Of a DNA stretch of 64,000 bases, positions 17,517-18,878 are shown piece by piece. Every line of letters begins with the position of its first letter. The first letter of the stretch is position 1. Under the pieces are notes generated by a model. That model was given only the letters and a program-made list of their open reading frames with translations. It ran no database searches and was not told the DNA's origin. This stretch comes from an uncultured Candidatus Saccharibacteria bacterium (lineage in GTDB: Bacteria; Patescibacteriota; Saccharimonadia; Saccharimonadales; JACDBH01). The translations under genes were made by a program, and so were the position numbers. The DNA lies in the NCBI GenBank assembly GCA_965231105.1, contig OZ246417.1, positions 768,908-832,907 on the forward strand, in the 5' to 3' direction.

Positions 17517-18878
17517 ATGGAGAGACAAGGATCTGTGTTTGCTATTGCCGAAAAACCGGCTGAAGTTAGCCCTGATTGGTTAGGGTATCGTTTTATAGCT
17601 CCTTCGCGCCATGCAAGATCAGGCAAGCTATCTCCTCTCCATATTGAAAAATTACCAAACTCGCTCGTTATGGGTGTAGAAGAAGCCCACGAGGTTGAAT
17701 TTTTGCTTGACTCGCCTTATGACTTCGCAATGGCAGGTTATGCTGAGATGCCGACCCCGAAAGACAAGAGCGCTTCGCTCTTAACTACGGTAGGCCAGCA
17801 ACTACTGGGCAGAACAATCATGGCTGGTCAGCAGGCGGTATTGCAAAACCTTGCATCCGATGAAGAATCAAGACTTGGTATCACTCAAGCAGCCGATAAA
17901 GCGTGGGAACGGTTAGTCGATTCAAATGTGCGTTTAGTGAGTGCTATCGCGAAACGAGTTAGACGAGACATGCCTTTCCGGGATGCGCAACAGCAGGGAT
18001 ACCTTGGCCTTATGCAAGCTGCTCGAAAGTTTGATTATAGAAAAGGCTTCAGGTTTTCAACCTATGCTGACCCATGGATTAAACAGTTCATTGCTGTTGG
18101 AAGAGCAGAGAGTTCTTTCCAGATTAGCGTTAAACCTAAAGACGCTATAAAGCTTGATGAACTGCAGGACGTTACATCGCTGTTGGTTGAAAATGATATA
18201 GCTCCTACCAACTCCACGCTTGCTGAGGTGATCGGTTGCGAGGTTCCGGAAGTTTGGGAAAGAATGCATATGCGTGAAATGACTTCTCATCAAATATCCT
18301 TAAATTCACATGCTCGTGGGGATAGAGAGCTTATTGATACTCTGCCCGACGAATCAACATATTCCGTGTCGGGGGACAGGGAAAAAACAGAAGAAGTAGA
18401 CACCTTACTTTTTGCCGCCATCAATGCCTTACCAGAAACTCACCGAGATATGTATATACAAAACCAAGCTCACGAAGTTTATTCTTCCGGAATTGGCAAA
18501 TCAAAGGCGCGGGACGTGACTTTATTAGCGAAGGAACAAGGACTTCCTATTTCGATCGTAGAAGCAATGCTTGATGAAGCTAAATTCATGCTCGTACATC
18601 CTTCAAGTGGGCTTATTAGTGAAGTTGATCCTCGTGAAGACAGAGAAGGTTTTTATGATGCCGAGTGCGTAAATGAGCCCTATGAAGTATTCTTTACCGC
18701 TACCGCAGACCAGCCAGAGGCTCGTGCAGTAAGAGCTCAAATGTGTGGCTCCTGCGCTATGCAAGGAGCGTGTGAAAAGCTGGCCGTTGAATACGAAGCG
18801 ACCGCTGGTTACTTTGGTAATGTCAACTTTGGTGCGAAAGACTCTCCCGGCTCCCTAGATTTACAGGCTACTTCGTAA
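17517..18878 (+). CDS. Sigma-70 family protein with C-terminal WhiB-like (Wbl) four-Cys module
   Basis: Region 2 is [50 protein letters not shown]. Regions 3 and 4 are degenerate. The C-terminus carries C384-x25-C410-x2-C413-x5-C419 plus GYFGN. Confidence 0.7.
   Translation: [453 protein letters not shown]
18639..18836 (+). other. WhiB-like domain-coding segment within the sigma-like CDS
   Basis: Encodes [66 protein letters not shown], with Wbl Cys spacing, a PE.FF-like motif and a G[VI]WGG-like turn. Confidence 0.6.

Follow-up and report, generated by a model that had tools for sequence, protein, structure and literature searches.

A sigma-70-family protein with its own WhiB-like domain: a candidate Fe-S-gated sigma factor from a small, low-GC genome

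The stretch of DNA analyzed here (64,000 nucleotides of contig OZ246417.1, hereafter the window) contains an open reading frame (ORF) that joins a sigma-70 factor to a WhiB-like (Wbl) domain in a single polypeptide. In the ORF list this sigma-Wbl gene occupies 17517..18878 of the forward strand, opens with ATG and encodes 453 amino acids (aa) and a stop codon. An initial annotation of the window had recognized a clear sigma region 2 in the product and had called regions 3 and 4 recognizable but degenerate, and the analysis bears out both statements. Pfam placed Sigma70_r2 at residues 133-191 of the full-length protein (E 7.3e-11, 42 bits against a cut-off of 24). The RpoD-, SigA- and RpoS-type models of NCBIfam covered residues ~106-314, which correspond to the end of region 1.2, region 2 and region 3; positions 2-181 of the RpoD_Cterm model align to residues 130-309. 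A sequence search of the Protein Data Bank (PDB) returned SigA/RpoD chains, with SigA matches at E 1e-17. The Pfam models Sigma70_r3 and r4 fell below threshold in this copy, but the sigma3 and sigma4 folds and their alignment are present. The full-length AlphaFold2 (AF2) model has a mean predicted local distance difference test score (pLDDT) of 84, and its best fold matches (Foldseek against the PDB) were group-1 SigA chains, over ~300 columns. To judge from these sequence matches, the sigma part is of the group-1/2 kind and not of the extracytoplasmic function (ECF) kind. The architecture, as read from the sequence, is essentially certain and comprises the following features:

17517..17771, forward strand: N-terminal domain, residues ~1-85, in the position of region 1.1 (AF2 predicts two helices and a pair of short strands, with pLDDT 87-98 across residues 21-80)
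17772..18116, forward strand: partial sigma region 1.2 and sigma2, residues ~86-200 (Pfam Sigma70_r2, NCBIfam, PDB sequence matches)
18129..18344, forward strand: sigma3, residues ~205-276 (NCBIfam RpoD_Cterm, AF2 helices over 207-257, Foldseek match to SigA)
18375..18602, forward strand: sigma4, residues ~287-362, made up of region 4.1 and the helix-turn-helix of 4.2, whose recognition helix is not basic (AF2, Foldseek, alignment)
18597..18602, forward strand: codons of H361-P362, the equivalent of Mycobacterium tuberculosis SigA H516-P517, kept in 24/24 family members
18603..18644, forward strand: short linker between sigma4 and Wbl, residues 363-376 (the C-terminal AF2 model gives it pLDDT 92-96, which speaks against a floppy segment)
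18645..18827, forward strand: Wbl domain, residues 377-437 (Pfam Whib, PDB profile match, Foldseek, conservation table)
18828..18875, forward strand: C-terminal tail, residues 438-453, non-basic and predicted to be disordered (pLDDT <50 from residue 446)

The N-terminal domain of ~85 aa had no match in Pfam or PHROGs, and in the family alignment it is conserved solely in the closest subfamily (P0002, P0122, P0135-P0137 and P0141). The helices of sigma4 span residues 287-303, 307-322, 334-341 and 345-360 of the AF2 model, and this domain of the C-terminal model matched both SigA4 and sigmaE region 4 chains in Foldseek.

The identity of the Wbl domain was approached by profile, by residue pattern and by fold. 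Whib (PF02467) was matched at residues 381-436 of the full-length protein with 23.9 bits against a gathering score of 23.6, and the last 103 aa alone scored 27.5 bits (E 4.7e-6). A profile made from three C-terminal sequences and searched against the PDB found the WhiB1 structures 5OAY/6ONO at E 3e-6, together with WhiB3, WhiB and WhiB4. The assignment to the Wbl family made in the initial annotation is thus supported by profile methods. The pattern on which that assignment had been based is in place throughout: the protein has five cysteines (C241, C384, C410, C413 and C419), the last four of which form C384-x25-C410-x2-C413-x5-C419, the segment EPYEVFF follows C384, and the turn GYFGN begins at G431, with 11 residues between C419 and the turn. 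Relative to the G[V/I]WGG turn, GYFGN retains the first and the fourth residue (both Gly) and replaces Trp by Phe, at the WhiB1-equivalent distance of Cys+12 to +16. The aromatic patch of Wbl proteins (AP1-AP4, in WhiB1 W3, F17, F18 and W60) serves in sigma4 binding and cluster stability (PMC13013590). Three residues of this WhiB1 patch have exact counterparts by position, in F392/F393 (Cys+8/+9) and F433 (Cys+14); F379/Y380 are at most one position away from AP1. In the AF2 model of the C-terminal part, the Wbl fold superimposed on WhiB1 (6ONO_A/6ONU_G) with a target-normalized template-modeling (TM) score of 0.67 and a root-mean-square deviation of 2.3-2.7 A over 62 residues, and on WhiB3 (8CWT_A) with a target-normalized TM-score of 0.63; the probabilities of these Foldseek matches were 0.99-1.00, with E-values that are weak for such small domains. 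On sequence and model, the window protein carries a genuine Wbl domain, although it is not a classical Wbl protein: stand-alone Wbl proteins are small monomers (~75-140 aa), and here the Wbl is one domain of a 453-aa sigma. The retained cysteines and the modeled fold suggest that the fused domain would bind a [4Fe-4S] cluster.

The initial annotation had raised the possibility that a frameshift joined two genes. The identical 453-aa protein was found in the NCBI contig (903,164 bp) and in the Logan assemblies ERR2586216 and ERR2586217, that is, in three independent assemblies, and P0002 (28% identical) and its tandem paralog P0122 have the same unbroken architecture, both with Pfam matches to Sigma70_r2 and Whib. 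These observations rule out that a sigma gene and an independent wbl gene were merged by an artifact of assembly or frameshift. The broader version of this explanation, which would add a chance pattern of cysteines, could draw on the full-length Whib score, which is just over its threshold; yet four of merely five cysteines in 453 aa fall within the motif, and the fusion recurs in 23 more clusters, at identities down to 20% and with the cysteines invariant. We give this explanation practically no weight.

The family was collected by an exhaustive HMMER search of a sigma4+Wbl profile against 1.84 billion cluster representatives, which gave 1776 matches at E<=1e-3. Among the best 150 of these, most were of short classical Wbl size and about two dozen were proteins of 344-598 aa that match at their C-termini. 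The family comprises at least 24 clusters at 50% identity, and the 24 representatives were aligned. Each of them matched both Sigma70_r2 and Whib in Pfam (best Whib E 4e-27); region 1.2 was matched in 11, region 3 in 11 and region 4 in five. The fusion and the four cysteines, whose conservation in homologs had been proposed as a check on the initial annotation, are thus present in 24/24. At identities of 20-33%, G431 and the H361-P362 pair are likewise invariant, the FF pair is kept in 22-23/24, the Trp or Phe of the turn in 24/24, and 22/24 relatives have the turn in the form G-x-W-G/A-x. Variations on the architecture occur at several loci. Two sigma-Wbl genes stand in tandem at L001 8589-11395, a Wbl-sigma-Wbl protein is encoded at L014 502-2178 (P0144), and L009 5609-11770 contains, in order, rpoD, a sigma-Wbl gene (404 aa), a 553-aa sigma that ends 10 residues past HPS and has no Wbl, and a further sigma-Wbl gene (589 aa). 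Among the relatives, one from a soil metagenome bears the locus tag BH10PAT3.

Searches of mobile elements and viruses gave no second source of the fusion. In tblastn of the canonical member P0149 (full length, and sigma4+Wbl) against PLSDB and INPHARED, plasmids and phages returned separate sigma or WhiB genes and no fusion; the long matches H29 and H61, considered as fusions, turned out to be an ordinary sigma in one case and a normal WhiB in the other. No sigma-Wbl relative was found in the IMG/VR scan, and no protein spanning both domains in the BFVD fold search. The scan of genome contigs for the close subfamily produced two actinobacterial wbl genes and nothing else, and that of metagenomes produced the L001 contig again and nothing else; by these two scans the closest sigma-Wbl subfamily is rare.

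The position of the invariant His-Pro pair was defined by aligning region 4.2 of the family with the RpoD of the window and with the C-termini of E. coli sigma70 and M. tuberculosis SigA, the latter two used as landmarks alone. In this alignment the family motif L-x-H-P-S coincides with the end of region 4.2 (...KLRHPSRS). In all solved complexes of Wbl proteins with SigA region 4 (SigA4), the sigma residues H516-P517 are inserted in the [4Fe-4S] pocket and framed by W3/F17/F18/W60, and binding is abolished by H516A, H516F, P517A, F17A and F18A (PMC6954389, PMC13013590); the aromatic patch also stabilizes the cluster in Wbl proteins (PMC13013590). In the sigma-Wbl family the pair is invariant in 24/24 while the 4.2 recognition helix around it varies almost freely, and the Wbl domain starts ~20 residues after the His-Pro loop, on the same chain. 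Because the pair, the aromatic patch and the cysteines are retained at WhiB1-equivalent spacing, the interface known to operate in trans appears to have been conserved within one chain. For residues 290-453, AF2 gave a model with a predicted TM-score (pTM) of 0.81 and a mean pLDDT of 86.8, with pLDDT 92-96 over the linker (HPSSG...AEC), and its top PDB matches in Foldseek were both components of Wbl:SigA4 complexes (WhiB3, WhiB1 and SigA4 chains). The model indicates that sigma4 and Wbl form one rigid, compact unit and not two tethered domains. The initial annotation had proposed that such a fusion would be a Rosetta stone for the contact between Wbl and sigma4, and the profiles, the predicted fold and the conservation, with the His-Pro pair and the aromatic patch both kept, give substance to this idea.

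On this evidence, our preferred reading, in which we have moderate confidence, takes the gene product for an alternative factor of the sigma-70 family and has its own Wbl domain dock in cis on sigma4, to give an Fe-S-gated module. The Wbl domain would fold back so that the cluster pocket (the four cysteines with F379/Y380, F392, F393 and F433) clamps H361-P362 of the same protein, a contact in cis that would mirror the one made in trans by free actinobacterial Wbl proteins with SigA region 4. Such a protein would amount to a sigma4-Wbl module in one chain that needs its Fe-S cluster to stay intact, and loss or nitrosylation of the cluster (by O2, nitric oxide (NO) or iron limitation) would then alter the activity or the stability of the sigma. 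Within this reading, docking in cis and binding of a cluster are predictions with good support from sequence and from the model, and gating by redox or NO and a sigma function within the holoenzyme are inferred. Several observations weigh against it. H-P-S is also a general motif of group-1 sigmas, such that its conservation could be partly ancestral; the full-length Whib score is barely over its cut-off, and the turn of the window protein is degenerate. In sigma2, a Pro takes the place of W433 and several core-binding positions differ. No Fe-S assembly gene was seen among the ~45 window ORFs scanned, a sample drawn from 64 kb of ~903 kb and uninformative genome-wide.

Two alternatives concern the Wbl domain itself. 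The four cysteines might constitute a structural site for zinc or another metal, or might hold a permanent cluster, in which case the protein would be an alternative sigma with a decorative domain that senses neither redox state nor NO. Motifs of four cysteines can bind zinc, and the degenerate turn, the tail that is not basic and the lack of Fe-S assembly genes among the window ORFs scanned would all be compatible with this possibility. The domain, however, matches the Wbl family and not zinc ribbons, by profile and by fold alike, the aromatic patch that stabilizes the cluster is retained, and the His-Pro pair is invariant; we consider this alternative unlikely. The other alternative would have the Wbl domain act in trans, on the His-Pro pair of a paralogous sigma, on that of another sigma-Wbl protein (by swap or dimer), or on SigA of an actinobacterial host. 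The 553-aa sigma of L009, which ends in HPS, has no Wbl and sits between two sigma-Wbl genes, would be a possible partner in such an arrangement; the tandem paralogs and the Wbl-sigma-Wbl protein are consistent with it, and fast divergence would fit an interaction with a host. The window, on the other hand, has neither a second sigma with a His-Pro pair nor a stand-alone wbl gene, and its RpoD lacks the pair. The short, confidently predicted linker and the pTM of 0.81 favor docking in cis, no secretion signal was evident at the N-terminus (no dedicated search was made for one), and there is no evidence of delivery. Action in trans is to our judgment very unlikely.

A further question is whether the window protein reads promoters in the manner of a canonical sigma. 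The equivalents of E. coli R584/E585/R586/R588/Q589 are, by alignment, I345/S346/I347/E349/A350, which confirms that the basic residues for contact with the -35 element are missing from region 4.2, as had been remarked in the initial annotation. That annotation had further suggested that the Wbl module could make up for the damaged -35 reader. Many Wbl proteins, not all, have a basic C-terminal tail or an AT-hook for contact with DNA. The tail of the window protein has one Lys/Arg in the 18 residues after the turn, compared to 4-8 in most relatives. Since basic residues are absent from the -35-contact positions and almost absent from the Wbl tail, the addition of DNA contacts by the Wbl domain is not favored for this copy. 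Several relatives keep a near-canonical region 4.2, for example ITREGVLRIKNRAISKLAHPS, together with basic tails. In sigma2 of the window protein, the -10 and melting residues Y430, W434 and Q437 are retained. From these sequence features it is more likely that the protein relies on recognition of the -10 or extended -10 element, or on a partner, or that it acts as a regulator that binds RNA polymerase. Within the preferred reading, this copy would probably use the -10 or extended -10 element, or a partner, instead of the canonical -35 contact.

The same evidence bears on whether the protein is a degenerate or pseudo-sigma, which would bind core RNA polymerase or the beta flap and would compete with, or regulate, the RpoD holoenzyme, with the Wbl domain setting its availability. 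The -35-contact residues, none of which is basic (I/S/I/E/A), and the Wbl tail, which is not basic either, are what one would expect of such a protein. The Pro at the W433 equivalent, the sub-threshold Pfam scores of regions 3 and 4 in this copy, and the rapid divergence (28-33% identity, compared to 87-93% for RpoD) are in line with it as well. It is opposed by the retention of Y430, W434 and Q437, by the confident AF2 folding of sigma3 and sigma4, and by the canonical region 4.2 and basic tails of relatives, which make the family look like working sigmas. We regard a pseudo-sigma as improbable, and prefer an alternative sigma with its Wbl domain docked in cis.

The genes around the sigma-Wbl gene place it in a conserved setting. 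Two genes upstream, with a putative promoter, are:

13029..14186, forward strand: housekeeping rpoD (Pfam regions 1.1, 1.2, 2, 3 and 4, i.e. regions 1.1-4), without a His-Pro pair
16690..17457, forward strand: GGDEF-domain gene (Pfam GGDEF), separated from the sigma-Wbl gene by a gap of 59 nt; it is a conserved neighbor of the closest sigma-Wbl subfamily, present likewise in L001 and L012
17481..17509, forward strand: promoter-like TTGCTA-17-TAAAAT with a TG extension, from a consensus scan alone, ending 8 nt 5' of the ATG

The sigma-Wbl gene is preceded by no other promoter-like site, and no Shine-Dalgarno sequence is visible upstream of the ATG; from the sequence, its mRNA may be leaderless. 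The gene order in the window is argS-mscL-msrB-...-dnaG-rpoD-...-[sigma-Wbl]-...-trmB-...-polA. The same order is found in L001, L009/L010, L011 (GCA_964600185.1) and L012 (GCA_965610755.1), with one to three sigma-Wbl or sigma genes right after or near rpoD; in L008 and L013 the sigma-Wbl members follow murC-ddl.

A His-Pro(-Ser) at the end of region 4.2 is otherwise widely conserved among sigmas. We compared the rpoD genes of five genomes (window 13029-14186, L001 3821-5107, L009 5609-6982, L011 8756-9934 and L012 4043-5230). In all five, RpoD ends in ...[SA]KKL.DYIK and has no His-Pro pair, the rest of region 4.2 being canonical. By the actinobacterial rule, a principal sigma without this pair could not be docked by a Wbl, and therefore the resident RpoD would not be a target. 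At the loci of the five genomes, His-Pro loops were seen solely in the sigma-Wbl genes and in the one Wbl-less paralog of L009.

The divergence of these genes is uneven. Relative to L001 and L012, the identity of the window protein is 87-93% for RpoD and 72-74% for DnaG, and it is 28-33% for sigma-Wbl and 23-24% for the GGDEF neighbor. PolA was compared with L001 only (75%) and TrmB with L012 only (45%). The identities of sigma-Wbl and GGDEF are far below those of the housekeeping proteins, which implies either a hyper-divergent regulatory segment or paralogs that are not orthologous. GGDEF, sigma-Wbl and TrmB together have the appearance of a hyper-divergent regulatory island and may mark a very fast-evolving regulatory hot spot in reduced, regulator-poor genomes. 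Downstream, the gene at 18957-20711 encodes 584 aa with a hydrophobic N-terminus resembling a signal peptide, GLUG motifs, fn3 and a hydrophobic C-terminal anchor, and by these sequence features its product is probably a surface protein. In L001 a large unannotated gene lies at the same place.

The genome of the window, on a contig of 903 kb, looks reduced and unlike those of the Actinobacteria in which Wbl proteins are known. The GC content of the sigma-Wbl loci is 0.45-0.51 (window 0.45), compared to 0.66-0.71 for the actinobacterial wbl loci that were fetched. The polynucleotide phosphorylase (PNPase) of the window scored 648 bits against the 1107 cut-off of the actinobacterial guanosine-pentaphosphate-synthetase (GPSI) model, and its RpoD fits the PRK09210 model, presumably of Firmicutes type, better than the PRK05901 models, which we take to be actinobacterial. 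The window genome thus differs from the actinobacterial hosts of Wbl proteins in its GC of 0.45, in an RpoD without the His-Pro pair and in a PNPase that is not of the GPSI type. Taking into account also the absence of rplI after rpsF-ssb-rpsR and the BH10PAT3 tag of one relative, we place the window genome, with moderate confidence, in a Saccharibacteria-like lineage of Patescibacteria. The sigma-Wbl proteins form an undescribed family in genomes that are small, low in GC and apparently not actinobacterial.

Among the closest known systems is the actinobacterial Wbl:SigA4 complex. The two partners are the same, and by sequence the four-Cys pocket, the aromatic patch and the His-Pro pair at the end of region 4.2 are shared. 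In Actinobacteria the partners are separate proteins and the sigma is the housekeeping one, whereas in the window they form one polypeptide and the sigma is an alternative one. The Wbl domain of the window has the turn GYFGN and no basic tail, in contrast to the G[V/I]WGG turn of actinobacterial Wbl proteins.

A covalent sigma-Wbl fusion is not without precedent. The initial annotation knew of no described case; one natural example, WblP of the actinomycete plasmid SCP1, is on record, reportedly with an ECF (group 4) sigma, and is uncharacterized. The literature has taken it to hint at a partnership of Wbl proteins with sigma factors. WblP shares with the window protein the general idea of a covalent fusion. 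As far as the description of WblP permits comparison, the window family differs in having sigma2-sigma3-sigma4 (with region 1.2 in 11/24 members) and a Wbl domain right after the His-Pro pair, and in being chromosomal, beside dnaG-rpoD, in low-GC small genomes. Assignment of the window protein to a class of WblP-type ECF fusions was rejected: the protein has a sigma3, and its best-fitting models belong to the RpoD/SigA/RpoS type.

Control of a sigma by a fused domain is known elsewhere. Some ECF sigmas have C-terminal regulatory domains (PMC7730460), as in ECF41/42/56 with their SnoaL-like extensions. The likeness is that a C-terminal extension which contacts the sigma domains modulates the sigma in cis, with no separate anti-sigma or activator; the sigma group and the fold of the extension are different, and these sigmas are not known to have an Fe-S cluster or a His-Pro docking loop. 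Group 2 sigmas and RpoD paralogs (HrdA-D, mycobacterial SigB, cyanobacterial SigB-E) have sigma2-sigma3-sigma4 and the HPS end in common with the window protein. They are often paralogs of rpoD, of the non-essential type, and provide its best NCBIfam and PDB matches; they differ in that none is known to have a fused Wbl, whereas the window copy has an unrelated 85-aa domain in place of region 1.1 and has lost the -35-reading residues. The MZA anti-phage system was also considered, for its sigma MzaA, and was rejected. The NCBIfam match reached 99.9 bits against a cut-off of 800 and covered the sigma part only; PADLOC gave a partial MzaA match alone, and the five neighboring genes scanned contain no MZA component, the ABC ATPase among them being only generic.

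In Actinobacteria, Wbl proteins govern cell division, virulence, resistance to antibiotics and the responses to NO/O2. According to the literature, including work of 2026, they act by clamping the His-Pro loop in the principal sigma's region 4. Reviews and a 2026 study (PMC13013590) state that they are exclusive to Actinobacteria and actinophages; a 2026 survey of Wbl proteins left out Pfam members whose length was not within 75-250 aa, calling them 'incomplete or multi-domain'. The literature that we searched contains no description of WhiB/Wbl-domain proteins in Saccharibacteria, Patescibacteria, TM7 or the Candidate Phyla Radiation (CPR), and none of a group-1/2-like sigma with a C-terminal Wbl directly after the His-Pro loop, or of a family of such proteins. 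It likewise holds no report of sigma-Wbl proteins in low-GC small genomes or of the loss of the His-Pro pair from a resident RpoD. Thus, the concept of a sigma-Wbl fusion is not new, given WblP, and the group-1/2-like family with a Wbl after the His-Pro loop is new by the literature searched.

The conserved fusion, ~20 residues past the His-Pro loop, provides independent support, derived from evolution, for the Wbl-sigma4 contact, and it sits in genomes whose housekeeping sigma has no such loop. If the taxonomy is confirmed, the range of Wbl proteins would extend beyond Actinobacteria, for which the present evidence is probable. A single-chain sigma4-Wbl module should also ease expression, crystallization and the study of cluster-dependent switching.

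As to origin, some Saccharibacteria-like Patescibacteria live on Actinobacteria, and transfer of a wbl gene from an actinobacterial host, which the initial annotation had entertained, is plausible. A fuller scenario, which we put forward tentatively and hold to be possible though on balance doubtful, is that a lineage of small, low-GC genomes, probably Saccharibacteria-like Patescibacteria, captured a wbl gene of its host or of an actinophage and fused it to an RpoD-like sigma bearing the His-Pro pair, which the lineage's housekeeping sigma no longer has, to yield a self-contained Fe-S-gated sigma. The family would then have grown beside dnaG-rpoD, to as many as three tandem copies and one Wbl-sigma-Wbl protein, with a divergence, far faster than that of the housekeeping genes nearby, of the sort expected of regulators tied to interaction with the host. 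Were this capture to have taken place, Wbl proteins would not be confined to Actinobacteria and their phages, and a natural tethering experiment would show the family's functional core to be the contact between Wbl and sigma4.

Other genes of the window are of interest in their own right. At 1667-2958 an MDMPI_N (DinB-like) gene adjoins a PIG-L/LmbE deacetylase gene; L001 has Rv3785_N. The MDMPI_N family, named after mycothiol-dependent maleylpyruvate isomerase, and the PIG-L/LmbE family are typical of mycothiol/bacillithiol metabolism. One would not expect genes of this type in a reduced genome, and they may have come from Actinobacteria; such actinobacterial-flavored genes would fit gene flow from actinobacterial hosts and prove nothing. 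The rpsF-ssb-rpsR cluster (45670-47905) is not followed by rplI (L9), and three unannotated ORFs (102, 93 and 112 aa) precede efp. Two long ORFs stand out: one of 933 aa on the reverse strand (54207-57008), with no NCBIfam match, and one of 569 aa on the forward strand (34000-35709), with no Pfam match. The segment at 34-36 kb has the highest GC of the window (0.489) and a reversed GC skew. The reverse strand also encodes a trehalose-6-phosphate synthase/phosphatase as an OtsA-OtsB fusion (29821-32052), a Fic/DOC protein (52871-54016) and a Crp-family regulator (49652-50302), all three notable, as regulators and stress functions, for a genome of ~0.9 Mb.

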